In this document: positions 40,015 through 63,993 of the stretch, one piece after another
Numbering within the stretch: position 1 is the first letter of the stretch
Layout of the letters: every line of letters starts with the position of its first letter
IMG/VR virus record: IMGVR_UViG_3300005529_000001
Location: 16,882 to 80,881 of that record
Source: a virus
Length of the DNA stretch: 64,000 bases
Reading direction: 5' to 3' (one strand)
The notes under the pieces: model-generated
Told to the model about the DNA's origin: nothing
Databases searched by the model: none
What the model saw: only the letters and a program-made list of their open reading frames with translations
Position numbers and translations under genes: made by a program

Positions 40015-40017
40015 GGT

Positions 40018-43341: not shown

Positions 43342-43343
43342 AG

Positions 43344-43868: not shown

Positions 43869-43956
43869 TTGAGCACCGTGAGGATGGCGACAGTGATGAG
43901 AAAGGCGATCGCGATATCAACCGCGAGCTTGAAGGGTTGGTTGAACTCGGGACGCA

Positions 43957-44633: not shown

Positions 44634-44634
44634 C

Positions 44635-49400: not shown

Positions 49401-49664
49401 TTACCGCAGCATCGACGGGAAGACCCACGAGGAGACTTCCAGGGCGTACCCCAGGGCGTCGACCTCGTGGGGCTTGGAGGTGTCGTGGGGGCCCTTGAAG
49501 GCCACCCCGACGCGGATCACCGAGTCTTTCCCGACCTCGACCGCAAGGACCTTGCACGGCTGGTGCTGGCGGGGGCGGTGGGCGTCCGCCGCGACGATGT
49601 CCTTGAGCTCGTAGACGCTGCCGACGACGAGCTCGCACTGGCCGAAGAGTTTGGACCTTGACAT
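49401..49664 (-). CDS. hypothetical protein
   Basis: 87 aa, preceded by recurrent motif. Confidence 0.4.
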   Translation of the reverse strand: MSRSKLFGQCELVVGSVYELKDIVAADAHRPRQHQPCKVLAVEVGKDSVIRVGVAFKGPHDTSKPHEVDALGYALEVSSWVFPSMLR

Positions 49665-49674
49665 GGGTCGACTC

Positions 49675-49703
49675 TACCAGGATCTGCGATCGTCTTTCAC
49701 CCA
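49675..49703 (-). promoter_or_regulatory. recurrent promoter-like motif
   Basis: ctctaccaggatctgcgatcgtctttcac immediately upstream of ATG at 49664. Confidence 0.5.
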
Positions 49704-49891
49704 TTGTCCGGGAATGGATGGTAGTTGGTGGGGACGCGTCCCCTGTCGTCGACGGCGTTGAGCGCCTCGACGAGGGCGGTGATGGCTGGGTTCGACATGC
49801 CGTCGGTGTTGATGCCGTCGTTGTCCTCGACCCGACGGATGAAGGTCTGTAGCTCCTGCAGCTGAGCGTGAGTGAAGGTGATGGTTGCCAT
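49697..49891 (-). CDS. hypothetical protein
   Basis: 64 aa. Confidence 0.35.
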   Translation of the reverse strand: MATITFTHAQLQELQTFIRRVEDNDGINTDGMSNPAITALVEALNAVDDRGRVPTNYHPFPDNG

Positions 49892-49921
49892 GATGGCAAC
49901 CTACCACTTTCGTCCGTGACC

Positions 49922-50224
49922 TTACACCGGGAGGCGGTCGTTGTAGGTGATGCTGTCCGCCTCATGGAGCGTCCAGTAGAGGTCCCAGTCGGCGTCCTCC
50001 AGGTTACGCCAGTCCTGGATCCCCGGGTCCCAGACCGCCCATGAGATGAAGCTGATCTCATAGCAGGAGGAGAGCAACCGCGTGCCGTCGGGGGAGAGCG
50101 AGAGGGTGTGGTAGCCTTCCTCGACCTTGTTCTGTTCCTCCGATTCCATGACGTCGTCCGTCAGGCAACCGGGGAAGAGCCGCGCTGCTTGGTCCGGGGT
50201 GAGGCGCTTGAGGGTGATGTCCAT
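49922..50224 (-). CDS. hypothetical protein
   Basis: 100 aa. Confidence 0.4.
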   Translation of the reverse strand: MDITLKRLTPDQAARLFPGCLTDDVMESEEQNKVEEGYHTLSLSPDGTRLLSSCYEISFISWAVWDPGIQDWRNLEDADWDLYWTLHEADSITYNDRLPV

Positions 50225-50287
50225 GACAGCATCCTAACACGCGCGTGCCCGACCTTTCACAGATCGGGCACGAGTTTTGTTGGTCAG

Positions 50288-50462
50288 TGGTTGTCGTTGG
50301 TCCGGACCCCGATGTACGGTCCCCAGTCGTCTTGGTACTCGGAACGTGGGATGAGTTCGATGTCAAACGCGACGGACGGGTCGGTGTCCATGGACAGTTC
50401 CTTGTCACCGTGACCCTCGGACACGAGGGCGTCAACCATCTCCTTCAGGTCGTTCAGTGTCA
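50288..50462 (-). CDS. small acidic protein (58 aa)
   Basis: manual translation MTLNDLKEMVDALVSEGHGDKELSMD...; preceded by motif. Confidence 0.3.
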
Positions 50463-50737
50463 TGAACCGAATCTACCACGAGTCGTTGCCTGTTTTCACC
50501 GAAAGACGCGCGGACCTGTCGCACCCAGTCCTGGGCATCGTAGAGACCGGCTTGCGCAGCGAGCCCATCGAGCTCATCAAGCTGGTCCTGGAGTGACTTC
50601 TGCGACTGCGGCTTGGTCCCCATCAGCTTCCTCCGGCGCTTTTCTCGACGGTCACCGAGCCGTTCGAGGGAGAGCCCTATCACGAAGATGGCAACGAACA
50701 TGACGATAACGCCGTGGAAGAAGCACGTCTCGTCCAT
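50432..50737 (-). CDS. N-terminally anchored protein
   Basis: 101 aa. Confidence 0.35.
   Translation of the reverse strand: MDETCFFHGVIVMFVAIFVIGLSLERLGDRREKRRRKLMGTKPQSQKSLQDQLDELDGLAAQAGLYDAQDWVRQVRASFGENRQRLVVDSVHDTERPEGDG
50471..50497 (-). promoter_or_regulatory. recurrent promoter-like motif
   Basis: tctaccacgagtcgttgcctgttttcac. Confidence 0.45.
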
Positions 50738-50769
50738 GTCCCGATCCTACCTCAGCTCATCAGCGACTT

Positions 50770-50961
50770 TCACCCGAGACGTGCTTCGACGACCTTGCTC
50801 TGGACGACAACGCAGCTGACGCGGTCAGCGACGCTGTCTGCGGGCCAGCCGAGCATCGGCTCGCCGTCGACCGAGACGAGCCGGAAGATCATGTTCTTTG
50901 CTTCGGCGAGGTTCTGGGCGCCCTTCTTGCTGAGGCCGATGAAGTCGGCTGCGCCGCTCAT
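50770..50961 (-). CDS. hypothetical small protein
   Basis: start MSGAADFIG. Confidence 0.3.
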   Translation of the reverse strand: MSGAADFIGLSKKGAQNLAEAKNMIFRLVSVDGEPMLGWPADSVADRVSCVVVQSKVVEARLG

Positions 50962-51155
50962 CGCGGGCCCGCCCGGAGACCCGCGGCCTCCTGGATGTCG
51001 AGGCGCATCAGCCTGCACTCGTCTGCCGCAGTCACCAGCGCGTCTTGTTGGAGCTTGACCTGCGACGTCAGCTGCTCGATCTTGTCAGCTGCGTCGTTGT
51101 GGTTGAAGAGGCGGAGCTCTGCGATGAGCTGCTCGGTGGTCTTGCGCTTTGCCAT
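50958..51155 (-). CDS. coiled-coil small protein
   Basis: 65 aa. Confidence 0.35.
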   Translation of the reverse strand: MAKRKTTEQLIAELRLFNHNDAADKIEQLTSQVKLQQDALVTAADECRLMRLDIQEAAGLRAGPR

Positions 51156-51160
51156 GGTCT

Positions 51161-51189
51161 CACTCTACCTGGATCTGCGGGTGATTTTC
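51161..51189 (-). promoter_or_regulatory. recurrent promoter-like motif
   Basis: ctctacctggatctgcgggtgattttcac. Confidence 0.5.
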
Positions 51190-51240
51190 ACCGAGCACCC
51201 GCGTCGGGGACACATCCAACCCGTCTTGAGCCTGATCTTC

Positions 51241-51414
51241 ATCGGTCGTCTCCACGCAGACGATACCCGTCCGCTCTGAGCGTTGCCTCGACGAGGCGTG
51301 AGCGCGGTGTCTCGAACGAGAACACGAAGCCCTGGGCTTCACGGACCTCCCGCTCGGCGATCGTCTCGAGCATCGTCTTCTTGTTGTCAACGGCGAGCGG
51401 GGAGCGCGGCATGT
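51241..51414 (-). CDS. small protein (57 aa)
   Basis: manual translation MPRSPLAVDNKKTMLETIAEREV... Confidence 0.25.
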
Positions 51415-51427
51415 CCAGACTCTACCC

Positions 51428-51664
51428 TCAGTAGCACGCCTGTTTCACCGAGGCCATGAAGCCCTGGGCGAAGAGCTGCTCCTCTTTCACGTCACGTGCT
51501 CCCGCTTCGGCCTTGAGCATGAAAGCGGTGGGCGAGTCACCCGGGATGCCGAAGAACTCGGTGTCCAGGAAACGGTGCCGCAACGCGGCGATGCAACGCT
51601 CGGCGTTGCGCTTCGCCTCAGCCGGGCTGAACGGGTGGTCGATCATGATGATGTCCTGCACCAT
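51428..51664 (-). CDS. hypothetical protein
   Basis: 78 aa. Confidence 0.35.
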   Translation of the reverse strand: MVQDIIMIDHPFSPAEAKRNAERCIAALRHRFLDTEFFGIPGDSPTAFMLKAEAGARDVKEEQLFAQGFMASVKQACY

Positions 51665-51696
51665 GATCGAATCCTACCTCGTTCTCGCCTGACCTT

Positions 51697-52125
51697 TCAC
51701 TGCTTCAGGCCGAAGCCCTCGGTGACACCACGTGCTCGCCGGGCAGCTGCCGTCAGGTAGACGGTGTAGACGCGGCGCTCGTGGGCCTGGTAGGTGACGT
51801 ACTGCAGGTCGTCGGCGATGCTCCAGTAGACGTCGCTCTTCACCTTGTTCTCGTCCTCGACGAAGTCGGCCTCGCACTTCTGCCCATCGCCCGTCATCGC
51901 AGCGTGGGCCTGCACCTGCTTGAGGACCCGCTTCACCTGTTTCGGGTTCACCGCCTCGTCGTCGTAGGCGTATCCGGTCTCCGCTTCTGCCTCCTTGCGG
52001 TTCTCCGCGGTGATGCAGTACTTGCCGTTGCAGCCGCAGGCGCAGCCGGGCTTGCCGCTGTACGCCTTGATGATGTCCGAGACGGTGAGGGAAGCGAGGT
52101 GTTGCTTGGCGGTGGTAGCGTCCAT
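51697..52125 (-). CDS. hypothetical Cys-containing protein
   Basis: start MDATTAKQ; CACGCNGKYC. Confidence 0.4.
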   Translation of the reverse strand: MDATTAKQHLASLTVSDIIKAYSGKPGCACGCNGKYCITAENRKEAEAETGYAYDDEAVNPKQVKRVLKQVQAHAAMTGDGQKCEADFVEDENKVKSDVYWSIADDLQYVTYQAHERRVYTVYLTAAARRARGVTEGFGLKQ

Positions 52126-52157
52126 GACCAAACTATACCTCGCTTCCCCGTTGACTT

Positions 52158-52454
52158 TCACCGCCACTCGCAGGTGGCCGCGCGCCCGCCGGTGTACAGG
52201 TCCTGCATCTCTCCACACACCCAGTGACGGGTGGTCTTGGCGACCGCGTGCTGGGGGACGCTGGCGACGATGGTGAACTCGTGGACCTGGATGACCTCGG
52301 GTGCCGCCGGGATGTCGAGGCTGGTGGGAGCCTCCAGCGCCGGGACGGGAACGCTCGGGTCGGCGTGGGAGCCGGTGCCCTGCGAAGCAAGGGCGATGCC
52401 AGTGCCGAGGAAGAGACCGATGACCGCAGCGATGAAGAAGATGTGGAATTTCAT
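52158..52454 (-). CDS. secreted small protein
   Basis: signal peptide MKFHIFFIAAVIGLFLGTGIALA. Confidence 0.4.
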   Translation of the reverse strand: MKFHIFFIAAVIGLFLGTGIALASQGTGSHADPSVPVPALEAPTSLDIPAAPEVIQVHEFTIVASVPQHAVAKTTRHWVCGEMQDLYTGGRAATCEWR

Positions 52455-52483
52455 GGGGTGGTGTCCTTTCCGTTGATGGACTG

Positions 52484-52511
52484 ACTCTACCTCGATCTGC
52501 GCTGATCTTTC
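52484..52511 (-). promoter_or_regulatory. recurrent promoter-like motif
   Basis: ctctacctcgatctgcgctgatctttcac. Confidence 0.5.
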
Positions 52512-52653
52512 ACAGGTTCAGCTCGTCGCTCCCAGTTGTCACTGGGCTCGCGCCGTGGGGCACCAGGCGTACTCGCTCCCGAGCAAGGAGCTTTCGGCCC
52601 AGCGGCTCTTCCCCGCCGGGAGCGACGAGCCGAGCCCGTGAGGGCTCAGGCGT

Positions 52654-52848
52654 TCAGCTGTCGCCGAACATCTTGTCGTTGACGACGAATGACGTGGTCG
52701 CCGCGCACCACAGCAGGCACAGCTGCTCATCCGTCATCGACGGGAAGGCGTTGCGGAGGTCATCGGTGCTCCCACCCGCGTTGTAGAGGATGGTGGCACG
52801 GGCGATGTCATCGCAGTTGGGGCGAGAATCGTAGCTTCCGATGTCCAT
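52654..52848 (-). CDS. hypothetical small protein
   Basis: start MDIGSYD. Confidence 0.3.
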   Translation of the reverse strand: MDIGSYDSRPNCDDIARATILYNAGGSTDDLRNAFPSMTDEQLCLLWCAATTSFVVNDKMFGDS

Positions 52849-52980
52849 GACCTTACTGTACCTCCTTTCCCTTCCGGCTTTCACTGATCTGCGTGAAGAT
52901 GGAGACGACGCCGACACAGATGAAGAAGAGCGCGATGCCAGGGTTCATGACCCCAGTCTATCCTGATCTGCGCTGACCTT

Positions 52981-53235
52981 TCACTCCGTGACGACGTTGC
53001 CGCGCTTGTCGTAGCGGACGACGCTGTCAGCACCCGTCCCGTCCTGCGACGGCTCACCGACGACAGTGGTCTGGGTCACTTCAGACCAACCACCGGTCCC
53101 GTCGGGGACGTCAAGGCGCTGGGTGACCTGGACAGCGTTGCAGTTGTTGCAGACGTGGATGATGAGCCCGCCTCGAGAGCGAAGGGACTCGACCATGGCT
53201 GACCTGGGAAAGCGGTGCTTGGTGCAAGTGTCCAT
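52981..53235 (-). CDS. zinc-ribbon small protein
   Basis: CNNCN plus C-terminal pattern. Confidence 0.35.
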   Translation of the reverse strand: MDTCTKHRFPRSAMVESLRSRGGLIIHVCNNCNAVQVTQRLDVPDGTGGWSEVTQTTVVGEPSQDGTGADSVVRYDKRGNVVTE

Positions 53236-53243
53236 GTCAGCAT

Positions 53244-53271
53244 CCTACCATGATCTGCGTTGGTCTTTCAC
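53244..53271 (-). promoter_or_regulatory. recurrent promoter-like motif
   Basis: cctaccatgatctgcgttggtctttcac. Confidence 0.5.
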
Positions 53272-53522
53272 TCGTCGTCGTACTTCACGTACTCCGCCTT
53301 GATGGCGACGGTGTAGATGATGTGCCCCTTCGGGGCGCCGGTGCCCTTCTGGTCGATGTCCTTGCGCATGGTGAACTCGCACGTGGTGGGCGTTCCGGGG
53401 GCGGTCAGGTCAACCACCGCGTTCGGGTGGGCGTCCAGCGAGTCAATGAACGGGTCCATCGGCGCCGCGAGCTCGCACGCGTCGATCATCGCCTGGGCGA
53501 CCTGTATCAGGTTGGTGTCCAT
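53268..53522 (-). CDS. hypothetical protein
   Basis: 84 aa. Confidence 0.4.
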   Translation of the reverse strand: MDTNLIQVAQAMIDACELAAPMDPFIDSLDAHPNAVVDLTAPGTPTTCEFTMRKDIDQKGTGAPKGHIIYTVAIKAEYVKYDDE

Positions 53523-53530
53523 GGTGTCAG

Positions 53531-53558
53531 TCTACCACGATCTGCGCGGCGCTTTCAC
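53531..53558 (-). promoter_or_regulatory. recurrent promoter-like motif
   Basis: tctaccacgatctgcgcggcgctttcac. Confidence 0.5.
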
Positions 53559-53809
53559 CAAGTGCGGCGCTTCGTGTAAACAGCAAAGACGCCCTCCGTT
53601 GTGACGGACGCCCACACCCGCATCCAACCGTTGGCTTCCATGTCGGAGTCAGACTGTGACGACGTGCCGCTCGGGTAGGGCAACACCCGGGTGACGAAGG
53701 TGTCGCCACCGCGCTTTTGCGCAGCGCTAACGGGTGGGTCGATGTCGACCGAGCGTCCCGTTGTGCGGTCGAGAATGACGGTGTCTTCGGGAGAGAATCT
53801 GTTGTCCAT
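53555..53809 (-). CDS. hypothetical protein
   Basis: 84 aa. Confidence 0.4.
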   Translation of the reverse strand: MDNRFSPEDTVILDRTTGRSVDIDPPVSAAQKRGGDTFVTRVLPYPSGTSSQSDSDMEANGWMRVWASVTTEGVFAVYTKRRTW

Positions 53810-53816
53810 GACAAGA

Positions 53817-53845
53817 CTCTACCAGGATCTGCGCGATCCTTTCAC
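53817..53845 (-). promoter_or_regulatory. recurrent promoter-like motif
   Basis: ctctaccaggatctgcgcgatcctttcac. Confidence 0.5.
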
Positions 53846-54042
53846 CCGTCGACGTAGGCGGTGCCCTCGACCACGCGGGCGTTGATGCCCTTCTGCTTCA
53901 GGAAACGCTGGTACGCTTCGTCTTCCTGTTCGGCGTCGTAGCCGTCGGCGCCCGTGAAGATGCGGTCGTCCCGGGTCATCATCCCCAGCTCGGGGTGCCC
54001 GATGGTCGCATCGTCATACTCGAGCTCGTACTTCTTGGTCAC
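53842..54042 (-). CDS. hypothetical acidic protein
   Basis: 66 aa. Confidence 0.35.
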   Translation of the reverse strand: MTKKYELEYDDATIGHPELGMMTRDDRIFTGADGYDAEQEDEAYQRFLKQKGINARVVEGTAYVDG

Positions 54043-54260
54043 GCTGGCACCGCCTTTCCGGGGATGAGGGTCCGCGTTGCGCGCTTCTGAGAGACGAGAC
54101 CGCTGGCGAAGCCGTCAGCGAACTCGAACGAGGTGTTGCAGAGCCGGTAGTGCGCCTTCCGCAGCGCCAGCTTGAAACCGGGCTTGCGACAGGGGACCAC
54201 CGCGACCCGCCCAGCGTGCGTGCCCTCGAGGACCTCGATCACGTTCCATGTTATGTCCAT
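54039..54260 (-). CDS. hypothetical protein
   Basis: 73 aa. Confidence 0.35.
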   Translation of the reverse strand: MDITWNVIEVLEGTHAGRVAVVPCRKPGFKLALRKAHYRLCNTSFEFADGFASGLVSQKRATRTLIPGKAVPA

Positions 54261-54268
54261 GACTCCAC

Positions 54269-54297
54269 TCTACTCCGATCTGTGCGGTGCTTTCACC
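54269..54297 (-). promoter_or_regulatory. recurrent promoter-like motif
   Basis: ctctactccgatctgtgcggtgctttcac. Confidence 0.5.
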
Positions 54298-54373
54298 GCG
54301 TGGAGAGGAAGCGCTTCCAAGCGACGATGCCGATGAACTCCAACAGCAACCAGCCTGTCAAGACGAGGTAGAG

Positions 54374-54402
54374 CATGTAGCAACTCTACCTTGATCTGCG
54401 TC
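54374..54402 (-). promoter_or_regulatory. recurrent promoter-like motif
   Basis: ctctaccttgatctgcgtcaggctttcac. Confidence 0.5.
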
Positions 54403-54736
54403 AGGCTTTCACCCTGACGTGGATGCTGAAGGAGTTCTCGTACGCCGTCTGCCCGTAGTACGAGCCGAGCAGCAGCTCGATGACGGTGCCATCGGGGAGC
54501 GTCTTGGTCAGGTCGGCACCCCGCGACACGCGATCTCCCGTCGGGTCGGTGCCGACCGACGCGTGGCTGATGCTGAAGCCGTGGGCACGAGCATTGGCTG
54601 ACACCCGAGCGAGCACCCGCGCGCCCGCGTGACCGTGGCGTTTCTCCCAGTCAGCCGACGTGGCAGTGACCCGGGTGCCAGCGCCGCCCGGGAACTTGAT
54701 GTCCTTGAGTAGCTTCTTGAACTCTTTGGCGTCCAT
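54401..54736 (-). CDS. hypothetical protein
   Basis: 111 aa. Confidence 0.4.
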   Translation of the reverse strand: MDAKEFKKLLKDIKFPGGAGTRVTATSADWEKRHGHAGARVLARVSANARAHGFSISHASVGTDPTGDRVSRGADLTKTLPDGTVIELLLGSYYGQTAYENSFSIHVRVKA

Positions 54737-54774
54737 GTCAGCAATCCTATCTTGATCTGCGGGCGGTTTTGCAC

Positions 54775-54969
54775 TCAGGGCGTGCCGAAGTCGGAGACGG
54801 CCTTCTCCATCACCGCCTTCCTGATCTGGACCTCCTTCAACGCCTTCTCCAGTGCATCCTCGAGCATCTGGAGCTGGTACAGCCCATCGTGGAGTGACCC
54901 AGCGATCGGGGACATGGTGTTGTTGATCGCTTCCTCGACCTCAGCAGTGAAACTCGGTCCGGGCATCAC
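54775..54969 (-). CDS. hypothetical protein
   Basis: 64 aa. Confidence 0.35.
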   Translation of the reverse strand: MMPGPSFTAEVEEAINNTMSPIAGSLHDGLYQLQMLEDALEKALKEVQIRKAVMEKAVSDFGTP

Positions 54970-54987
54970 CTCACCTCCATGGTCATG

Positions 54988-55016
54988 TTATACCAGGATC
55001 TGCGCGATCCTTTCAC
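54988..55016 (-). promoter_or_regulatory. recurrent promoter-like motif
   Basis: gttataccaggatctgcgcgatcctttcac. Confidence 0.5.
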
Positions 55017-55318
55017 ACGTCGAGGCCGCAGTACTGCGTCACCAACACCTTGGTGCCGAAGACTTGGACCTTTGGCTCCTCCGAGAAGGAGCGACCTGGG
55101 CCACCGTAGTGACGGTCCCAGCCGGTGAGGACGTGTGCCAGGTCGTAGTCGTCGTCCTGTGCGCGGGGACCGATCGTGCGGAGCAGCTCCGCCTCGCACT
55201 CTGCCTTGTCCAGCACCACGTACTTGGTGCACGAGGCCTCGCTGGGGTCACGGAAGGAGATGCCGCTGCGGAGGACGGTGAAGCCGGTGTCGATGGTGAC
55301 GTGCTCGTTGGTTGCCAT
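55013..55318 (-). CDS. hypothetical protein
   Basis: 101 aa. Confidence 0.4.
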   Translation of the reverse strand: MATNEHVTIDTGFTVLRSGISFRDPSEASCTKYVVLDKAECEAELLRTIGPRAQDDDYDLAHVLTGWDRHYGGPGRSFSEEPKVQVFGTKVLVTQYCGLDV

Positions 55319-55326
55319 GAGACCAG

Positions 55327-55354
55327 TCTACACTGATCTGCGCTTGGCTTTCAC
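55327..55354 (-). promoter_or_regulatory. recurrent promoter-like motif
   Basis: gtctacactgatctgcgcttggctttcac. Confidence 0.5.
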
Positions 55355-56064: not shown

Positions 56065-56187
56065 GTTACCAGTCTACCCCAACTCGGGTCGGACTTGCAC
56101 AAGTCCCTCGCGAGCGGCCCGCGCGCTCGCGCAAACGCAACAAGCCCGGAGCCTTGTGAGCCCCGAGCCGGTGCGGTTTGTTTTCGC

Positions 56188-57466: not shown

Positions 57467-57513
57467 GCTGGCTCTGGGTGCAAGTTCATACCCGAATTGG
57501 GTACCATGCAGCC

Positions 57514-57735
57514 ATGGGCCGACGAATCAGCGAAGCAACCCGGTACACCGTGTGCTACACCCTAGGCAAGGGAACGGAGCAACGCTTCGAGTGTACTGCC
57601 CGGGACCGAGGCGACGCCTTGGCCCAGCTCAAGCAACAACTGAAGGGACCGGATTGGAAAGGCGATCCGATCCCATCTCCCAACGTCTTACGCATCGTGC
57701 CCTGTTGGCTCGGCCGCGTAGGTCTGAAACCGTAG
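57514..57735 (+). CDS. hypothetical protein (plus strand)
   Basis: start MGRRISEATRY. Confidence 0.3.
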   Translation: MGRRISEATRYTVCYTLGKGTEQRFECTARDRGDALAQLKQQLKGPDWKGDPIPSPNVLRIVPCWLGRVGLKP

Positions 57736-57756
57736 CTCAGAAAGGACAAACGCAAC

Positions 57757-58041
57757 ATGATGCGTGCACAGGGCGCTCCGCGCAAGGTCTACACCCGCAA
57801 CGGTGTCACCCACGTCTGCTTCCAGGGCATCTACTTCAGGGCCCCGAAAGCGAGCAGGATCGACCCCGAGCGCGAGGTCTCGAAGATCGAGGTCCTTGAC
57901 AAGAGCGGGGGCAAGCACCGGGTCGGTGTCACCCAGCGTGTCGCGGGCAAGAACGTCACCGAGACGTGGCACGAGGGCTCTGTCCCGGTGCAGGGTCGCC
58001 GCAAGAAGCAAGGCAAGCGCCAGGCTTCCATTTCAGCCTAG
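57757..58041 (+). CDS. hypothetical protein, paralog of 59956..60201
   Basis: APRKVYTRNGVTHVCFQGIYF...VTQRVAGKNVTETWHEG aligns with APRRVYSRNNVLHVLFAGEHF...VTQRKPGKAGVSETWGK. Confidence 0.45.
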   Translation: MMRAQGAPRKVYTRNGVTHVCFQGIYFRAPKASRIDPEREVSKIEVLDKSGGKHRVGVTQRVAGKNVTETWHEGSVPVQGRRKKQGKRQASISA

Positions 58042-58045
58042 TGGC

Positions 58046-58186
58046 TCTTCACTTGATGAAGAGGCTGAGGACGAAGGAGACTCCCGACGAGATGGCGAGG
58101 CCGAGTGCTGCGCCGTGCGCGTCGTTGACGCAGAAGCCGATCGCAGTGCTAGTGACCCAGAGGTTGATCGCGGTGGGATTCATCAT
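58046..58186 (-). CDS. tiny membrane peptide (46 aa)
   Basis: manual translation MMNPTAINLWVTSTAIGFCVND... Confidence 0.25.
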
Positions 58187-58254
58187 GATCCTACCCTACC
58201 ACGACGTGAGGATACGATTCACTATCCTCCACGTCGTGGCGATCGTCCGCTCGA

Positions 58255-58590
58255 TCAAATCGACCTGAACAAGACCTGGCAGTTCAGCTTCGCACAGAAG
58301 CCGGTCCTGAGGCCCTTCGGCTTCCGGTGCCAGCCTGCCCACTGTCCGCGACAGGAAGTGACGACCAGGGTCAGCTGGGGGACGCCATCCGGCCATCCCT
58401 TCCACGGGCCGACCATGATGGGCTCGCCCCCGTCGTCACACCAACGACCCGCGGCTGCGTTCGCATCGTGGATCGCCTTGACATCCTCCGCCGTCCGACG
58501 GATCCAGACGTCGTGCTTGTTGCGCAGGAGGACGACTGTCTCACCACGCTTGACGTGTCGGTTGTAGACCCCGTTGGATTCCTTGCTCAT
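58255..58590 (-). CDS. hypothetical protein
   Basis: start MSKESNG. Confidence 0.4.
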   Translation of the reverse strand: MSKESNGVYNRHVKRGETVVLLRNKHDVWIRRTAEDVKAIHDANAAAGRWCDDGGEPIMVGPWKGWPDGVPQLTLVVTSCRGQWAGWHRKPKGLRTGFCAKLNCQVLFRSI

Positions 58591-58683
58591 GAGTCGTATC
58601 ATACTCCTGTTCTGCAGCGACTTGCACTGGAAACGCGAATGGGCCGGATGTGAAATCCGACCCACCGCGGGTCTACAGCCTTA

Positions 58684-58854
58684 GACCGAGAAGCGTCCCA
58701 TCCGGATGGCCCGGCGAGGCCAGGCGAAAGCGTGGCGGAGCGGGCGCCAGGCGATGCAGACGGAGATGACCACGTAGGCCATGAACTCCAGGGCAACCCA
58801 GGCGAGGATGCAGGTGATGACGGGGTGGGTGGACCAGGTGGTGTTGAGCATGAT
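58684..58854 (-). CDS. tiny membrane peptide (56 aa)
   Basis: manual translation MLNTTWSTHPVITCILAWVALEFMAYVVISVCIAW... Confidence 0.25.
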
Positions 58855-58859
58855 CAGAC

Positions 58860-58887
58860 TCTACCAGGAATGTCCCCGATCTTTCAC
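58860..58887 (-). promoter_or_regulatory. recurrent promoter-like motif
   Basis: tctaccaggaatgtccccgatctttcac. Confidence 0.45.
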
Positions 58888-59388
58888 TCAGTCGGAAGAG
58901 TCGACCCGGCTCTCGCACCGGTAGACGTAGTAAGGCGTCTCGATCGGCTCGTAAGGCAAGCCGCTGTACGGGTTGATCGCCGCACCGGGGATGGGCTCCT
59001 GGGTGAAGCGATTGAACATCTGACACTCGATCTTGTCGAGCCCAGATGGCTTGGTGTCCGTTGTTTTGGGTCCCGGTTTCCCGTAGTCAGCAAACTCCTC
59101 GGGGACCGGCGTCTCCATCCCGTTGATGACCTGGCAGGCCTTGAACTCTTGGCCATAGCCGAGGTATCCGATGTCGCGGAGCAACCACAGCTGCTTCAGC
59201 GACAGGGGCTTGAGCGAAGCCACCTCATAGTACGAGGCGTTATAGCAGTTGCCCAGCTGCCTGCCACCCTTGTTGACGATAGACAGCGCCGGACGCGGGT
59301 TGAGGTAGAGAAAGTCCACATCGTTCCGCGGGCGGGGTCGAGCGATCGGGTTGGTGTTGGTTGAGGGGAAGTTTGGTCGTCTTGCCAT
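58888..59388 (-). CDS. hypothetical protein
   Basis: 166 aa. Confidence 0.4.
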   Translation of the reverse strand: MARRPNFPSTNTNPIARPRPRNDVDFLYLNPRPALSIVNKGGRQLGNCYNASYYEVASLKPLSLKQLWLLRDIGYLGYGQEFKACQVINGMETPVPEEFADYGKPGPKTTDTKPSGLDKIECQMFNRFTQEPIPGAAINPYSGLPYEPIETPYYVYRCESRVDSSD

Positions 59389-59426
59389 GACACTAACCTA
59401 CCATTGATCTGCAGCGACTTGCATCG

Positions 59427-59600
59427 TCAGTTGAGGTCTTCGGGGCGCGGGGCGGGAGCGTTGGGCTTGTTGAAGATCCGTTCCCAGCCGTCGTTGTAGG
59501 CTTGGGTCGAGGTCCGGGACCGAATGCCGTTGGACCCCTGCTCGTCCTTCGAGGTCACCGTCTCGATGACCGCCACGACCACGATGGTATCGTCTTTCAT
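59427..59600 (-). CDS. hypothetical small protein
   Basis: start MKDDTIVVVAV. Confidence 0.3.
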   Translation of the reverse strand: MKDDTIVVVAVIETVTSKDEQGSNGIRSRTSTQAYNDGWERIFNKPNAPAPRPEDLN

Positions 59601-59601
59601 C

Positions 59602-59856
59602 TCATCCTCCGAATTGGTTGAGGGGCACCCGGAACGTCCGGTCGTCGACCTGTGAGAAGAACTTGTTGTCGTTGAGCAACGCAAACGAGAATAGCGAGCT
59701 CAGCGTGTCGCTGTCCGTCTCCTCAGAGGAGCGGAACCTGACGAACACCGTCCCATCCCGCTTGGTGTCCGACAGCTCGTAGCACGAGCTCATCGTGACG
59801 TGGGTGCGGATGTACGCCTGCAGGTTCCGGGTCAGCTTGCGAGAGTTGGCGACCAT
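59602..59856 (-). CDS. hypothetical protein
   Basis: 84 aa. Confidence 0.35.
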   Translation of the reverse strand: MVANSRKLTRNLQAYIRTHVTMSSCYELSDTKRDGTVFVRFRSSEETDSDTLSSLFSFALLNDNKFFSQVDDRTFRVPLNQFGG

Positions 59857-59955
59857 GATGGTAGTCTATCCAAAGTCACCGCGATCTTTCACTGAAACGA
59901 ACATGGTCCCAGCCTTTGACGACTGGGACCATGGTGACGCCATCGGCGTGCAGGT

Positions 59956-60201
59956 TCAGGCCCGAGCGTTGCAGGGCACCTTGACCTTGCCCCAGGTCTC
60001 GGAGACACCGGCCTTGCCCGGCTTGCGCTGGGTGACGGTGATGGTGCCGTCGCCGTTGCCGACGATCTTGACGAGGTTCGTCTCGCTGGCGATGATCTTG
60101 CTGTCGGCCTTGGTGCCGAAGTGCTCGCCGGCGAAGAGGACATGGAGGACGTTGTTGCGGCTGTAGACGCGGCGGGGGGCGTTGGCGGACTTCATCGACA
60201 T
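59956..60201 (-). CDS. hypothetical protein, paralog of 57757..58041
   Basis: start MSMKSANAPRRVY. Confidence 0.45.
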   Translation of the reverse strand: MSMKSANAPRRVYSRNNVLHVLFAGEHFGTKADSKIIASETNLVKIVGNGDGTITVTQRKPGKAGVSETWGKVKVPCNARA

Positions 60202-60284
60202 GGCTTCTTCTCCGTTTTCGTTTTGTTGGGGTTGGTTGGGGTGACTTGACTGTTGTACCACTGAACTACGCAGTATTGCACAGT

Positions 60285-60623
60285 TCAGTCGTTGTAGATG
60301 ATGATGGTGCAGCCGGGTTCGCAGTTGGGATCTGCCTGCTCGAAGCGCCATGAAGAGATTTCATGGTCATCGGTGGTCGAGACCTGTGACAGGGTAAACA
60401 GGCGACGTTCGCCCGTCCGGCCAGCGACGATGAAGCCGACGTCAGCAGCGTCTTTCCAGATGCGAGTGTTCAGCATGCTGGACAGCAAGCCGTTGTGCTG
60501 GTTGAACTGGCTGGCTTCGGCGGTGCCGTAGTACCAGTACCAAGTGCCAGCCTTCGCTCGTCGCTCCCACTGGAAGAAGTGGGTGCTGAGGACCGAGAGG
60601 TTGTCAGTGTCGGGTGCTCTCAT
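60285..60623 (-). CDS. hypothetical protein
   Basis: 112 aa. Confidence 0.4.
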   Translation of the reverse strand: MRAPDTDNLSVLSTHFFQWERRAKAGTWYWYYGTAEASQFNQHNGLLSSMLNTRIWKDAADVGFIVAGRTGERRLFTLSQVSTTDDHEISSWRFEQADPNCEPGCTIIIYND

Positions 60624-60663
60624 GATCTGCAGTCTACCTTGATCTGAGGGGATGTTGCACAGT

Positions 60664-61011
60664 TCACCAGCGGTGGGTGCGTGCCTTCAGCTGGCTGACG
60701 AACCTGAGGGACACATCAAAGGACACGTAGTCCCTTCCCTGCATTCCCTGCTCGGTGTAGTCGACGTGCCCCTTCAGGCCCGCGGCCTTGAGAGCTGCCC
60801 TGAGCTCCCGGAGGAAGCGCGGGTCGGAGTAGATGAGCCCGTGCTTGGCGATGTCCCACGTGCCCTTGGTGAAGTAGACGCGGAGCTCAGCGCACTTGAT
60901 GTCGGGCTGGTAGTACTCGTTCCTGCAGCTGATCCGGGTGACGCGGACCTCGCGGGCTTCGCGTGACCAAAAGCCCTTGCCATTGGTGTGAAGGGTGACT
61001 CCGAACCTCAT
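60664..61011 (-). CDS. hypothetical protein
   Basis: start MRFGVTLH. Confidence 0.4.
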   Translation of the reverse strand: MRFGVTLHTNGKGFWSREAREVRVTRISCRNEYYQPDIKCAELRVYFTKGTWDIAKHGLIYSDPRFLRELRAALKAAGLKGHVDYTEQGMQGRDYVSFDVSLRFVSQLKARTHRW

Positions 61012-61013
61012 GT

Positions 61014-61160
61014 CAGTATTCCTCCCTCTTCCAGCTCTTGCGAGCGTCCTTGGCGCGCCGGTCTCGCCGGTCACGCATCACCTGCTTCCGCTCCTGGAAC
61101 GCGCCGAGCGGGTTGCGCTTCTGCTCCTTCGGGAGCTCGATGGTGAAGATCGTTGCCATG
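61014..61160 (-). CDS. small basic protein (49 aa)
   Basis: manual translation MATIFTIELPKEQKRNPLGAFQERKQVMRDRRDRRAKDARKSWKREEY. Confidence 0.25.
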
Positions 61161-61166
61161 GTCCTA

Positions 61167-61194
61167 ATCTACCACGACCAACGTGATCTTTCAC
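61167..61194 (-). promoter_or_regulatory. recurrent promoter-like motif
   Basis: atctaccacgaccaacgtgatctttcac. Confidence 0.45.
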
Positions 61195-61424
61195 TGCCAC
61201 CGGCGCAATGACGGGACCCACTCGTAGCTGAAGACAGTGCAATCCAGGTCCTCGATCGTCAGCTTGCCGTTACGGCTGGTGACGCAACAGGCGTTGAGAA
61301 TGGCGTCACGCCGCGACCCGGTGAACTTCACCTCTTTCTTGAGGTACCGTGCGACCGCCTTGTGCTCGAACAGGCGATCGACCTGCTCATCCGTCAGCTC
61401 TGTGACGTCATGTGACATGTTCAT
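61191..61424 (-). CDS. hypothetical protein
   Basis: 77 aa. Confidence 0.35.
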   Translation of the reverse strand: MNMSHDVTELTDEQVDRLFEHKAVARYLKKEVKFTGSRRDAILNACCVTSRNGKLTIEDLDCTVFSYEWVPSLRRWQ

Positions 61425-61455
61425 GGTAGCATCCTACCACAGTCACCATGATCTT

Positions 61456-61851
61456 TCACTGTGTCTCGCGAGCCCAAGCGAGAGCACCAGCGCACAGCTT
61501 GTTGCTGAGGCCGGTGGTGTTGGGGTACCAACGGAAGTTCTTGGTGGGCTTTCCGTACCGCTGGAAGAGGAACTTACTGTTGGCAATGGCGCTCTTGACA
61601 AGGGCCATCACGTCCTTGGCAGTGGGCTGCTGGCCAGTCGAGCGATCGAACTCAGCGCGGGGCTCGTAGGAATCGGAGCGTCCGGAGTCCATGCCTCCCA
61701 CTGCGCCGGTGGTGAAGACGCGGACCCGCACCGTGTCGTTGTTCGGGTCCCACTCCACCTTGAGGGAGTCGTTGTACCGGAAGTCTCCGGTGATGTGGGC
61801 GCTGAGAGAACCGATGACGACGGGCGACTTCTTAGCGGGGGTGGTGTCCAT
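61456..61851 (-). CDS. hypothetical protein
   Basis: start MDTTPAKKSP; rest of 329 aa ORF upstream is Arg/Gly/Pro-rich and rejected. Confidence 0.4.
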   Translation of the reverse strand: MDTTPAKKSPVVIGSLSAHITGDFRYNDSLKVEWDPNNDTVRVRVFTTGAVGGMDSGRSDSYEPRAEFDRSTGQQPTAKDVMALVKSAIANSKFLFQRYGKPTKNFRWYPNTTGLSNKLCAGALAWARETQ

Positions 61852-61907
61852 GTCTCGAATGTACCACGGTCCCCGATGATCTTTCACCGGGGACCGTGTG
61901 ATGATCT

Positions 61908-62555
61908 TTACTTCAGGAAGATGTGGTTCTCCGAGATGAGTCGGTTGTACACCTCCAGACGGGACTCCTTGTACTGGTCGTCGAGTCTCGAGATCCTCCC
62001 GTAGTGGAGGAGACAATGACACTCCGACTTCGGAACACCCATCCCGACGAGGACCTCGGTCTGGGTCTTCTCCCACTCCTTCTCCTCGTTCATCATCCGG
62101 AGGACGATCTTCCAGTTCGGGTCGTCGGTGTCCTTGTAGTCGGGGTGACGATCGAAGAGACCCTTGGACATCTCGTCGAACATCTTCTCGAGGGTCGACC
62201 GGAGGGTCCCCAACTTGACGGGGTCGGTCTTCTTGTTCTGGGCGAGGTAGAGGACACCCGTCCAGTCCTTGATCTCCTCGTTGACGACACGAGGAGAATC
62301 TTCCTCCCCACACTCCCGGAGATGGGTCATCGAGTTGAGGACGCTCTCGGCGACCTCGGGGGTGACGTTGAAGATCTTCACCACCTGGTCCTTGACGACC
62401 TGACGGTTCTTCTCTTCGTCCTTCTTGTCCAGGTACGACCCCCACTCTGGGAGTTCGTATTCCACACTCCGGACTGTGACTTCGTCATCGTGTCGGTACG
62501 CTTCGTACACTGTCCAGACGATGTCTTTGACGGCCGAGCGGGTGAGACGCTTCAT
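61908..62555 (-). CDS. hypothetical protein
   Basis: 215 aa, coding-like, Lys/Glu/Asp-rich. Confidence 0.45.
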   Translation of the reverse strand: MKRLTRSAVKDIVWTVYEAYRHDDEVTVRSVEYELPEWGSYLDKKDEEKNRQVVKDQVVKIFNVTPEVAESVLNSMTHLRECGEEDSPRVVNEEIKDWTGVLYLAQNKKTDPVKLGTLRSTLEKMFDEMSKGLFDRHPDYKDTDDPNWKIVLRMMNEEKEWEKTQTEVLVGMGVPKSECHCLLHYGRISRLDDQYKESRLEVYNRLISENHIFLK

Positions 62556-62574
62556 GTGTCCTCCAGTCAGACCA

Positions 62575-62602
62575 GTCTACCACGACTGGCGTGATCTTTC
62601 AC
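62575..62602 (-). promoter_or_regulatory. recurrent promoter-like motif
   Basis: gtctaccacgactggcgtgatctttcac. Confidence 0.45.
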
Positions 62603-62913
62603 CGTCTCTCGACGACTTCCAGCGTCAGCATGCGACCGAGCTGCGGATTGAAGGCGCGGAACGCGCCGCGCTTGCCGTCGCTGTCTCGCTCCTCGACCCA
62701 CAGGGTGAGGACGGGCTCCTTCCACTTCTGGGTGAAGTAGATGCCCCTGAACTTTCCGGTGAAGTGGCGAGGGTTGATACCCTCGCTCACCGAACGAGCG
62801 GCTTCCTGCCGTGCCTGTGGGCCGGGACGCCTGCCCGCGAGGTAGGAGACGAAGACGGTGGAGTTGAGTGGGACGTCCTTCAACGCTGCGACCATCTGCT
62901 TGCCGTTGACCAT
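62599..62913 (-). CDS. hypothetical protein
   Basis: 104 aa. Confidence 0.4.
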   Translation of the reverse strand: MVNGKQMVAALKDVPLNSTVFVSYLAGRRPGPQARQEAARSVSEGINPRHFTGKFRGIYFTQKWKEPVLTLWVEERDSDGKRGAFRAFNPQLGRMLTLEVVERR

Positions 62914-62960
62914 AGAAGCAGTGTACCACAGATCAGTAGTGAGTTACACTTAAACGCCGA

Positions 62961-62978
62961 CGGGGACCGAAGTCCCCG
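62961..62978 (-). terminator. perfect GC hairpin (possible intrinsic terminator or RNA stability element) downstream of 63172..63672
   Basis: CGGGGAC-CGAA-GTCCCCG inverted repeat; on the transcribed strand followed by GCGTTTAAG. Confidence 0.3.
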
Positions 62979-63171
62979 CAGCGTACAGTTTGGGTATTCC
63001 CGACTAGGTCTGCGCGCTCCGCGCTGCCCGTTCCGTGTAGCCTCCGTCAAAGGATCGCATCGATGATCTTTCTCGTTGTGGGTGTCTCTACTCTCAGGTG
63101 GGTCGAGTTCCTCGTCAACGCTGGTGATGCAAGTCCTAGACCATGGTGACCTCCGTGTTGCGTTCCACACC

Positions 63172-63672
63172 CTACATGGTGAACATGACCGCGTGGGCTC
63201 CCGGCTTCCCGGGATCGACCTTCAGCAAGCGCTTGCACGCCTTGCCGATGCGTTCGATGTCACTCGCGTGCTTGGTGATGTCCTTGAGCGAGGCGAACTC
63301 GTCCTTGGTCGAGACCTTCAGCGACTCGAGGCAGACGTAGATGCCGCAGCCGTTGTAGAAGTCACCGATCACCTGGACGGAGCAATCCAGCGCCTCCTGG
63401 AGCGCCTCGATGATCCAGTCCTCGGGGCACCAGTTCTCGGGGTCGAAGCCGTCAGCGCACGGTCCCTCGTACGTCTTGCCGCAGATGACGACGTCGTATG
63501 ACTCCTCTTCGTCGATCACCACCTCGGGGATCTCGAACTTCTTGCCGGTCTTGGGGTCGAACCTGTCTTCCTTGTGCGACTTCTGCGGGTGACGCTGCAA
63601 CAGCTTCTGGAAGAAGCTCTGTAGCGGGATGACATAACCGATGACGAGTTCTGCGCTGCGGTCGACGCTCAT
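63172..63672 (-). CDS. hypothetical acidic Cys-containing protein
   Basis: 166 aa. Confidence 0.4.
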   Translation of the reverse strand: MSVDRSAELVIGYVIPLQSFFQKLLQRHPQKSHKEDRFDPKTGKKFEIPEVVIDEEESYDVVICGKTYEGPCADGFDPENWCPEDWIIEALQEALDCSVQVIGDFYNGCGIYVCLESLKVSTKDEFASLKDITKHASDIERIGKACKRLLKVDPGKPGAHAVMFTM

Positions 63673-63696
63673 GGTTTCTCTCCGGTGTAGACTGAA

Positions 63697-63724
63697 TCTA
63701 CCACGATCACCCGTGAGTTTTCAC
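63697..63724 (-). promoter_or_regulatory. recurrent promoter-like motif
   Basis: atctaccacgatcacccgtgagttttcac. Confidence 0.45.
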
Positions 63725-63729
63725 TCCCG

Positions 63730-63993
63730 TCAATCGATGTCCACGCGGATCATCGGGTTGTCAGCGTGTTTCTCGAGCCAATCCGCTGCTTTGCGCAGCT
63801 CCTTGGCAAACGCGGCAGGCGTGGATCGCCACTTCAGCTCGTGACTGGGACCGTCGTCAGCGAGATCCGCCTCGGAGTGTGGGTTTGTGCAGTCGGAGGC
63901 CCTACACTTGCAGAACCCGCCTTTCGGCGGCGGGGGTTCAGCACAGAAATACATCCCGTTGTGGGCATCGAACTCGAGCCGGCCGCGCTTCAC
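63730..63993 (-). CDS. hypothetical Cys-rich protein (3' portion; may extend beyond window)
   Basis: 87 aa ORF reaching near window edge. Confidence 0.3.
   Translation of the reverse strand: MKRGRLEFDAHNGMYFCAEPPPPKGGFCKCRASDCTNPHSEADLADDGPSHELKWRSTPAAFAKELRKAADWLEKHADNPMIRVDID

Follow-up and report, generated by a model that had tools for sequence, protein, structure and literature searches.

A 64,000-nt stretch of an uncultured phage (the window; positions 16,882 to 80,881 of IMG/VR record IMGVR_UViG_3300005529_000001) carries, ahead of most of its small genes, copies of a bipartite element of about 30 bp that, judging by the logic of its sequence, is very probably a promoter from which mostly leaderless messenger RNAs (mRNAs) are made. 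The window is part of the 369,506-bp contig k141_1055159, a 369.5-kb uncultured phage, where it lies reversed at about 77.4-141.4 kb; 116 of its 121 open reading frame (ORF) calls are on the minus strand. With moderate confidence, the overall picture is that of a sigma-70-type promoter that is shared by the whole phage clade and read by the sigma factor of the host, while the sigma factor encoded by the phage would serve late promoters.

In the proposed mechanism, the element would act as a sigma-70-family promoter composed of a -35-like box, GTG(A/C/T)AA(G), and, 17 +/- 1 nt further on, an extended -10 box, R-T/G-G-n-TAGRnT. Six nucleotides ending in C separate the -10 box from the ATG, so that RNA polymerase would start on the A of the ATG, and the resulting leaderless mRNAs would be translated without a Shine-Dalgarno site. 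The element would thereby serve as the general promoter of the non-structural (early or middle type) genes of this phage and of its whole clade, with almost every small gene of the 48-64 kb block having a copy of its own. At the onset of infection, the promoters would most likely be recognised by the holoenzyme that contains the host's primary sigma. The phage sigma, a presumed product of this regulon, would act at other (late) promoters outside the window.

A two-block element in many copies

A preliminary description of this DNA had proposed a promoter-like motif ahead of nearly every small minus-strand gene between 49.6 and 63.8 kb and had written it as GTGAAAG-N(6-8)-CGCAGATC. This pattern has 0 matches in the window. 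The copies that bear the CGCAGATC box read GTGAAAG-N5-CGCAGATC-N2-GGTAGAnT-N6-ATG instead, and the box is limited to a sub-class of 11-14 copies rather than being part of the general motif. The general form is GTG(A/C/T)AA(G)-N15-(T)GGTAGRnT, in which TAnnnT lies 17 nt past the 7-mer. GTGAAAG itself occurs 31 times in the window, against 8.8 +/- 3.3 expected, and 28 of the 31 occurrences are on the minus strand.

A position matrix of two blocks, a 7-mer and an 8-mer separated by a gap of 14-16, was iterated on the window. At 12 bits or more it returns 63 minus-strand and 4 plus-strand sites, and Markov-1 random sequences yield a mean of 0.97 (maximum 4); at 16 bits or more, 55 minus-strand sites and 1 plus-strand site are found, against a random mean of 0.10. 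Enrichment over random sequence, a check that had been set for the motif, is thus clear. The converged counts over the 63 sites are G59 T63 G63 (A45/C14/T4) A63 A54 (G37) for the -35-like block and G53 G48 T63 A63 (G42/C12) (A35/G26) n T62 for the -10 block. The matrix seeds demanded TAnnnT, which accounts for part of the invariance of its T, A and T; neither the strand bias nor the comparison with shuffled sequence nor the de novo selection in relatives (see below) depends on this seeding. The 7-mer and TAnnnT are 17 nt apart at 53 of the 63 sites; five of the others have a spacing of 16 nt and five of 18 nt, and the spacer positions are nearly information-free except in the sub-class boxes. 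G precedes the -10 at positions -14 and -13, and the clade-wide form of this extension reads R-T-G-n.

These two conserved blocks, 17 +/- 1 nt apart and with an invariant TA...T, agree with the earlier comparison to a -35/-10 pair. No TTGACA-like -35 was found, GTG(A/C/T)AA matching it at 3-4 of 6 positions, and a scan for canonical TTGACA/TATAAT promoters returned only 2 sites in 17 kb, which is chance level. Between 49.6 and 63.8 kb, 34 minus-strand sites of at least 12 bits stand ahead of most small genes; at 29 of these 34, an ATG 6-7 nt past the -10 T opens an ORF of at least 25 codons, which bears out the estimate of about 30 copies. The two variants mentioned earlier, at 18.04 kb (site 18067) and at 62.93 kb (site 62949), both exist.

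Geometry at the start codon

Among the 68 sites that score at least 10 bits, the ATG follows the -10 T after exactly 6 nt in 43 cases, after 7 nt in 8 and after 8-10 nt in 5, where 5-9 nt had been given previously; the remaining 12 sites have no adjacent ATG. Transcription usually starts 7 nt past the -10, and a pyrimidine followed by a purine is the classical start context. With the ATG 6 nt past the -10 T, the A of the ATG would be position +1, and C at -1 with A at +1 is indeed present in 44 of the 48 leaderless sites. A start on this A gives an mRNA without a leader; the start codon lies at the predicted +1 and leaves no room for a Shine-Dalgarno site. The leaderless mRNAs that had been predicted are consistent with this geometry and with the C at -1, the start position being what we infer from them. 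A TANNNT placed directly against the ORF drives leaderless genes both in mycobacteria (PMC4633059) and in Deinococcus-Thermus (PMC12340547), and in M. smegmatis a G-rich stretch beside the -10 promotes transcription (PMC12641261).

Not all targets are leaderless. GGAG-type ribosome-binding-site leaders follow the copies at 63724, 62602, 52513, 18067 and 14317, and another copy precedes a transfer RNA (tRNA) array. Since the element serves tRNAs, leadered genes and leaderless genes alike, it appears to act on transcription and not on translation. Copies are co-oriented with genes on both strands, plus-strand copies preceding plus-strand genes. When copies are compared with each other, the 36-nt core is 53.5% identical, whereas the 40 nt upstream and the 60 nt downstream are at 27-30%, the random level. 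No similarity was detected among the downstream ORFs, and Tandem Repeats Finder reported no long-period array. Gene duplication as the source of the motif copies was rejected on these three grounds.

The 48 leaderless starts also show a bias in their second codon: 13 have GAC (Asp) there and 6 have GCA, compared with 5.2% and 1.2% for these codons inside the same ORFs. A preference acting on the part that is transcribed or translated first may lie behind this excess.

Distribution of the copies

Copies occur at a density of 2-4 sites per 4 kb over 1-48 kb (0 in 36-40 kb) and of 7-12 per 4 kb in 48-64 kb. Both the element and the small-gene block run on for at least 7 kb past the right end of the window, where a 10-kb flank was scanned; this flank holds three opposite-strand genes paired with three opposite-strand copies. 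The proposal that the promoter drives a block of small genes agrees with the 34 sites located there but is too narrow, as copies elsewhere precede the sigma operon, the tRNAs and the genes for the DNA ligase and an ATPase. The predicted promoters are as follows, with matrix scores in bits.

49671..49700, minus: spacer-box subclass, GTGAAAGacgatCGCAGATCctGGTAGAGT; ATG 49664, 87 codons, leaderless; 24.9 bits
49898..49927, minus: GTGTAAG ... GGTAGGTT; ATG 49891; 20.1 bits
50231..50260, minus: ATG 50224; 21.7 bits
50470..50499, minus: ATG 50463; 23.1 bits
50744..50773, minus: ATG 50737; 24.1 bits
51162..51191, minus: CGCAGATC box; ATG 51155; 23.6 bits
51419..51448, minus: ATG 51412; 23.6 bits
51671..51700, minus: ATG 51664; 24.1 bits
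52132..52161, minus: -10 TATAGT; ATG 52125; 22.7 bits
52484..52513, minus: both GATC boxes (GTGAAAGATCAGCGCAGATC); leadered, Shine-Dalgarno-like GGAAAGGA, ATG about 29 nt downstream; 24.9 bits
52855..52884, minus: ATG 52848; 23.2 bits
52955..52984, minus: CGCAGATC box; ATG 52948; 22.7 bits
53242..53271, minus: CGCAGATC box; ATG 53235, 84 codons; 24.1 bits
53529..53558, minus: CGCAGATC box; ATG 53522, 84 codons; 24.6 bits
53816..53845, minus: CGCAGATC box; ATG 53809, 84 codons; 24.9 bits
54267..54296, minus: box variant CACAGATC; ATG 54260; 22.2 bits
54383..54412, minus: CGCAGATC box; ATG 54376, 27 codons; 24.9 bits
54744..54774, minus: GTGCAAA, 18-nt spacing, CGCAGATC box; ATG 54736; 16.3 bits
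54987..55016, minus: CGCAGATC box, -10 TATAAC; leadered, GGAGGTGAGGTG before ATG; 17.0 bits
55325..55354, minus: CGCAGATC box; ATG 55318; 21.8 bits
56071..56100, minus: GTGCAAG; ATG 56064, 237 codons; 22.4 bits
56959..56988, minus: no adjacent ORF; 17.7 bits
57478..57507, plus: GTGCAAG-N17-TACCAT-N6-ATG, heading a plus-strand gene island; ATG 57514; 16.1 bits
58193..58222, minus: ATG 58186; 19.0 bits
58598..58627, minus: ATG 58590; 17.0 bits
58858..58887, minus: GTGAAAGATC subclass; ATG 58851; 24.9 bits
59395..59424, minus: ATGCAAG, box variant TGCAGATC; ATG 59388; 18.1 bits
59863..59892, minus: GTGAAAGATC subclass; ATG 59856; 22.7 bits
60631..60660, minus: GTGCAAC, box variant CTCAGATC; ATG 60623; 21.0 bits
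61166..61194, minus: GTGAAAGATCAC subclass, 16-nt spacing; ATG 61159; 22.9 bits
61431..61459, minus: GTGAAAGATCAT subclass; ATG 61424; 22.6 bits
61858..61887, minus: GTGAAAGATCAT subclass; ATG 61851; 22.7 bits
62574..62602, minus: GTGAAAGATCAC subclass; leadered, ctGGAGGacac before ATG; 23.1 bits
62920..62949, minus: GTGTAAC ... GGTACACT (the 62.93-kb variant); ATG 62913; 18.1 bits
63695..63724, minus: leadered, ccGGAGAGaaacc before ATG 63672; 23.1 bits
47399..49359, minus: five promoters left of the block, all leaderless by geometry; starts 47428, 47964, 48452, 48831, 49359
22494..22523, minus: about 30 nt 5' of the first tRNA of the array, with non-coding targets; 21.7 bits
18700..18730, minus: leaderless GTG start, GTG 18693, 6 nt past the -10
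18038..18067, minus: head of the sigma-containing operon (the 18.04-kb variant); Shine-Dalgarno leader, aGGAGAaatctt before ATG
2288..45183, minus: 24 more copies, of 12 bits or above and spread over 1-46 kb, with a more variable -35, GTG[A/C/T]AA; among them 2317 (491-aa HNH/metallopeptidase-like gene), 10357 (DNA ligase), 14317 (leadered; AAA ATPase), 24723, 35045 and 40674

Within the block, genes and promoters are tightly interlocked. The TGA of GTGAAAG ends ORFs of at least 40 codons at 17 sites, and the TAG of the -10 (TAGAGT or TAGGAT) does the same at 10 sites, so that the stop codon of one gene is part of the promoter of the next; the intergenic space is often about 32 nt, that is, the promoter alone. 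The promoters at 52984, 53271, 53558 and 53845 are spaced exactly 287 bp apart, and the region 52948-53845 (minus strand) holds three successive 84-codon ORFs, yet their proteins have no detectable mutual similarity. Strong terminator-like hairpins lie directly 5' of two promoters, one with an 11-bp stem at 56169-56143 (minus) before promoter 56100 and one with a 13-bp stem at 59933-59902 (minus) before promoter 59892. Across the units as a whole, intrinsic terminators between them are not enriched (12 versus 10.4 expected). A plus-strand gene island at 57.0-58.1 kb sits inside the minus-strand block with its own plus-strand promoter copy.

GATC-containing boxes mark subsets of the block

GATC is present in 22 of the 39 promoters of 47-64 kb and in 1 of the 24 elsewhere; it occurs in 15% of random 30-mers. 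Within the promoters it occupies two fixed offsets, +16 and +6, which are about one helical turn apart. The first corresponds to the CGCAGATC box, which spans -24..-17 counted from the A of the ATG, is exact at 11 sites and one mismatch away at three, and is mostly found within 49.7-55.4 kb; CGCAGATC itself has 12 exact copies in all, every one on the minus strand between 49681 and 55342. The second corresponds to GTGAAAGATC(A); it is present at 7 sites, of which six lie in 58.9-62.6 kb, and overlaps the -35 box. Promoter 52513 carries both. Because the 5 nt between the 7-mer and CGCAGATC vary while the box is constant, the box itself seems to be constrained, and the closest relative bears it at two promoters. 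The two boxes are putative operators, regulator binding sites that would mark subsets of the block. Dam-type control of these boxes is unsupported, as GATC is not depleted and no methyltransferase family is among the Pfam results for the window.

A promoter shared by a phage clade

A search of IMG/VR with the phage sigma protein returned 337 contigs at 55-82% identity, of up to 340 kb and 35-66% guanine-cytosine (GC) content. The matrix derived from the window gives strongly strand-biased matches in most of these sigma-bearing relatives, and here, too, the element is found ahead of tRNA arrays. When sites in relatives were selected de novo by TAnnnT-N6-ATG followed by an ORF of at least 50 codons, and by nothing else, (G/a)TG(c/a/t)AA was recovered at an unchanged distance, whether the group was of low, mid or high GC. 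The -35-like box differs in flavour from phage to phage: GTGCAA in contig L002, GTGTAAG in contig L004 and GTGAAAG in the phage studied here. Dense blocks are likewise present, with 25 sites in 9.5 kb (L121), 18 in 8.5 kb (L104) and 18 in 10.3 kb (L148).

A scan of all of IMG/VR with the pattern GTGNAAG-N15-GGTAGNNT-N6-ATG yielded 67 stretches. Five contigs have at least 3 matches, and the other approximately 42 contigs have one match each:

3300035696_000017: 18 matches, in the sigma list
3300028654_000384: 14 matches, in the sigma list
3300031344_000004: 7 matches, in the sigma list
3300031344_000200: 7 matches, not in the sigma list; shares its sample with 3300031344_000004
3300032722_000006: 6 matches, in the sigma list

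As the pattern is multi-copy in IMG/VR only within this phage clade, the consensus is a property of the clade. The suggestion of a phage-specific promoter class is therefore upheld in so far as the consensus is clade-specific and unlike TTGACA/TATAAT, but the link to the phage sigma that came with it is unsupported. Among cultured phages, megablast of 35 kb against 50,697 phage records gave no match; tblastn with the sigma reached at most 39% identity, and tblastn with a conserved 100-aa protein of the sigma operon gave no match. No description of this clade or of the motif was found in the literature. The 'moraphage' lineage is different from this clade.

The phage sigma factor and its operon

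The ORF at 16478-17293 on the minus strand encodes, as had been stated, a sigma-70-family factor (Pfam Sigma70_r2, 3e-22; Sigma70_r3, 6.6e-06). RpoD/SigA chains in the PDB match it at E-values of 1e-44 to 1e-39, in alignments that end at residue ~250-265. Its operon and the two proteins of most interest here are:

13047-18067, minus: operon of two small ORFs, the sigma, a small membrane protein, the 100-aa, a ~140-aa and a ~130-aa protein and a MoxR-like AAA ATPase
16478..17293, minus: phage protein of the sigma-70 family with regions 1.2-4.1; its region 4.2, degenerate or truncated, ends in ...YPITEDEVKRVASGKGLT
15589..15891, minus: conserved 100-aa protein, two genes 3' of the sigma, with a near-invariant NYREIA..M..G..MNHSS.RN...M.KF

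The -10-reading motif of region 2.4, YATWWIKQAI, is canonical and group-1-like. Region 4, in contrast to regions 2 and 3, has no Pfam match, and ...YPITEDEVKRVASGKGLT ends the protein after region 4.1 (LRLRFGL). Alignment of region 4.2 with the primary sigmas of E. coli, B. subtilis and M. tuberculosis indicates that the protein lacks the first helix of the helix-turn-helix and stops short by about 20 residues at its C-terminus; in place of the basic recognition helix TRERIRQIE, its tail ITEDEVKRVASGKGLT has an acidic stretch. All 19 relatives examined end alike, so this is not a sequencing artefact. In E. coli sigma-70, the region 3.0 glutamate E458 contacts the TG of the extended -10. The equivalent position is T in the phage sigma and T, S, G, A or N across its family, and across the relatives no covariation links this residue to the form of the -10 extension. 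This sigma, its region 4.2 degenerate and its region 3.0 glutamate replaced, would be poorly equipped for the two conserved upstream elements of the promoters.

The sigma operon is itself headed by the same type of promoter, at 18067 in the window and likewise in L002 and L004. This position of the sigma gene, the lack of a canonical 4.2 helix and the replaced glutamate together tell against the preliminary description's assignment of the promoters to the phage sigma. The gene order from the sigma to the MoxR-like ATPase is kept in 19 of 19 relatives. The family of the 100-aa protein comprises at least 502 clusters, all of them metagenomic, and its near-invariant stretch resembles sigma region 4.2 by eye. 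Pfam returned nothing for this protein, the family profile reached only E = 0.63 against PDB sequences (SigR region 4), and hhalign against a small region 4 alignment gave 8% probability; no fold match was found. The idea that it supplies the missing region 4.2 as part of a split sigma is thus unsupported.

Who reads the promoter

Above all, it is the identity of the reader that we infer. The model in which the host sigma reads the promoters is preferred as the simplest, because the content of the regulon matches the usual cascade from host holoenzyme to phage sigma; in SPO1, early genes use the host sigma A until phage sigmas take over (PMC13401047). Several points weigh against this model. 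Start sites and leaderless status are predictions from geometry. The -35-like box is not TTGACA, its G1 and A5 are almost invariant and the canonical scan is at chance, while the -35 is reported to be broadly conserved across 49 bacterial species, Bacteroides excepted (PMC12641261). The box is kept in phages of 35-66% GC, whose hosts presumably differ, and is multi-copy only in the clade; such a clade-restricted, GC-independent box would be explained naturally by a reader encoded by the phages. Moreover, a separate class of late promoters is assumed.

One reader of this kind would be an RNA polymerase that carries the RpoD-like phage sigma and recognises a phage-specific class through the -10 and its extension, with no -35 contact; low transcription of the sigma operon by the host sigma would start a positive feedback loop. 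This is possible but doubtful. The clade specificity and GC independence of the consensus, the deviation of the -35-like box from TTGACA at conserved positions and the conservation of the sigma in all relatives examined (55-82% identity) speak for it, and a region 2.4 near those of group 1 sigmas should read TAnnnT. Sigma-70 without region 4.2 still initiates at extended -10 promoters, the type found here. Yet the sigma gene itself stands behind a promoter of this type, the protein has no canonical -35-reading helix although no part of the motif is better conserved than the -35-like box, and the TG-contacting glutamate of region 3.0 is replaced although the promoters keep the TG extension, with no covariation between the two. 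Furthermore, the regulon consists of the genes expected first, the dense small ORFs, before any phage sigma exists unless it is packaged in the virion. The last objection applies equally to a scheme akin to sigma appropriation, in which a phage DNA-binding protein reads GTGNAA in place of region 4 and a host or phage sigma reads the -10: the earliest genes still need a reader that is present at time zero. A non-canonical upstream box joined to a canonical -10 fits such a scheme, and the sigma operon offers two candidates in the proteins encoded at 15589-15891 (100 aa) and 15161-15580 (139 aa). Specifically, the order sigma, small membrane protein, 100-aa protein and ~140-aa protein is found in 19 of 19 relatives, and the large 100-aa family (502 clusters) has a nearly invariant, helix-turn-helix-like stretch and the weak profile match to SigR region 4 (E = 0.63). 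No MotA or AsiA is among the 25 listed of 26 Pfam families from the 121 window ORFs (64 of 369.5 kb), and sigma appropriation is considered quite improbable.

A bolder reading, which we think rather unlikely, holds that a globally distributed clade of 100-370-kb phages, with at least 337 contigs in IMG/VR, a signature gene whose proteins form at least 502 clusters and a GC content of 35-66%, has its own promoter code, GTGNAA-N17/18-TGnTAnnnT set on the ATG. This code would be read by the phages themselves, by means of the RpoD-like sigma without canonical -35 recognition and a partner from the same conserved operon. That the element is no promoter, but a translation signal associated with starts, the boundary of a recombination cassette or a by-product of tandem duplication, deserves almost no weight. 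Its position directly before start codons, the three successive 84-codon ORFs with their 287-bp period and the potential of 30-bp repeats to promote shuffling of small genes would fit such a role. However, the element also precedes tRNAs and lies at variable distances from genes with their own Shine-Dalgarno site, it is bipartite with a variable 15-nt spacer and a TA...T signature, it has no Shine-Dalgarno-like core, and the unrelated flanks, the non-paralogous ORFs and the lack of a long-period array in Tandem Repeats Finder oppose duplication.

Known systems and a possible host

In kind, the element belongs to known sigma-70-type phage promoters with leaderless expression; the reader of the non-canonical -35 box is the interesting question. 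A close likeness in layout is to the leaderless promoters of Actinobacteria and Deinococcus-Thermus, which share TAnnnT 6-7 nt before the start, the absence of a Shine-Dalgarno site and ATG or GTG at +1 (PMC4633059, PMC12340547), as well as a G-rich or TG extension upstream of the -10 (PMC12641261). These promoters are mostly without a recognisable -35, however, whereas the phage element has a strongly conserved, non-canonical -35-like box and, unlike host leaderless promoters, is repeated about once per gene.

Many small genes behind near-identical, phage-specific promoters are also a feature of the SPO1 host-takeover module and of the T4 early promoters. In T4, the host primary sigma is the first to read the early promoters. 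The same applies to SPO1, whose early promoters are read by the host primary sigma before phage sigmas (PMC13401047). In both phages the early mRNAs have leaders with strong ribosome-binding sites, the -35 is nearer to the host consensus, and host and timing are known, whereas the mRNAs here are predicted to be mostly leaderless. A sigma-family protein from a phage without its own RNA polymerase has counterparts in gp28 and gp33/34 of SPO1 and gp55 of T4, and RpoD-like sigmas are typical of 'group 2' jumbo phages (PMC7824862). The sigmas of SPO1 and T4 read a distinct middle or late consensus and are expressed from an earlier class; here, the sole class seen heads the sigma operon. T4 middle promoters, which combine a MotA box at -30 with a sigma-70 -10, similarly join a canonical -10 to a non-canonical upstream box. 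The box of the present element, in contrast to the MotA box, lies at -36..-30 with -35-like spacing, and no MotA or AsiA homologues are among the families listed for the window. A short conserved sequence repeated directly before many starts is known, moreover, from cluster K mycobacteriophages, whose start-associated sequence (SAS) consists of one 13-bp block with the ribosome-binding site inside it; the present element differs in being bipartite, in lacking a Shine-Dalgarno sequence and in also preceding tRNAs and leadered genes.

With regard to the host, a scan of GTDB (185,579 species-representative genomes) found the 100-aa protein only on 3 contigs of metagenome-assembled genomes (L082, L083 and L084), which are labelled Paceibacterota and Bdellovibrionota. 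These contigs are probably phage DNA mis-binned into bacterial genomes and could mislead the assignment of host or taxonomy. Among the 121 predicted proteins, one matches the Pfam dimerisation domain (E 8.9e-5) of Lsr2, a nucleoid protein of actinobacteria, although its ORF could not be located. An Actinomycetota host, while not established, is compatible with this weak match, with the abundance of predicted leaderless starts, with GGAG-type sites on internal genes, with the G-rich -10 extension and with the wide GC range of the clade.

Gene content of the window

Promoter-bearing loci encode the sigma, DNA and RNA ligases, a dNMP kinase, endonuclease VII, a primase/helicase, ATPases and tRNAs, and also hold dense blocks of small ORFs. 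Capsid, tail, portal and terminase genes were found neither in the window, nor within 10 kb of the sigma gene in relatives, nor in 21 promoter-bearing loci of relatives. The genes near the promoters thus look non-structural, of early or middle type. GC content is about 56-58% in 1-40 kb and 62-66% in 40-58 kb, and the composition of the small-gene block is unlike that of the rest of the window.

The remaining features concern translation:

18731..22457, minus: tRNA array of 20 genes (ARAGORN; 17 confirmed by Rfam), one with anticodon CTA
19900-19975: the CTA-anticodon tRNA, labelled 'Pyl' by ARAGORN; a potential amber suppressor
18833-18926, minus: tRNA-like gene of 94 nt, anticodon undetermined by ARAGORN
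37965-38426, minus: phage-encoded protein with a ribosomal L7/L12 C-terminal domain (E 4.8e-13)
L086 19644-20234: peptide chain release factor (PCRF/RF-1 domains), just past the left end of the window

Translation-related genes such as those for the L7/L12-domain protein and the release factor are typical of huge phages.

Implications

If the geometry holds, the element provides a near-complete map of transcription units for the non-structural part of the phage, with at least 63 start sites in 64 kb. Many start codons would thereby be corrected, and leaderless translation would be the main mode for small genes. The two GATC-containing boxes, in turn, define candidate regulatory subsets within the block. 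Such leaderless starts, combined with a G-rich -10 extension, would narrow the search for the host to phyla rich in leaderless genes, for instance Actinomycetota.

The clade-wide, GC-independent -35 box and the co-inherited sigma with its degenerate region 4.2 pose a clean biochemical question, namely which protein reads the box, and this question can be approached without culturing the phage. Should the promoter code prove to be read by the phages themselves, their non-structural transcription would be largely independent of the specificity of host sigmas, and their mRNAs of Shine-Dalgarno pairing. An expression system as portable as this could account for the range of very different host genomes that a single lineage spans.

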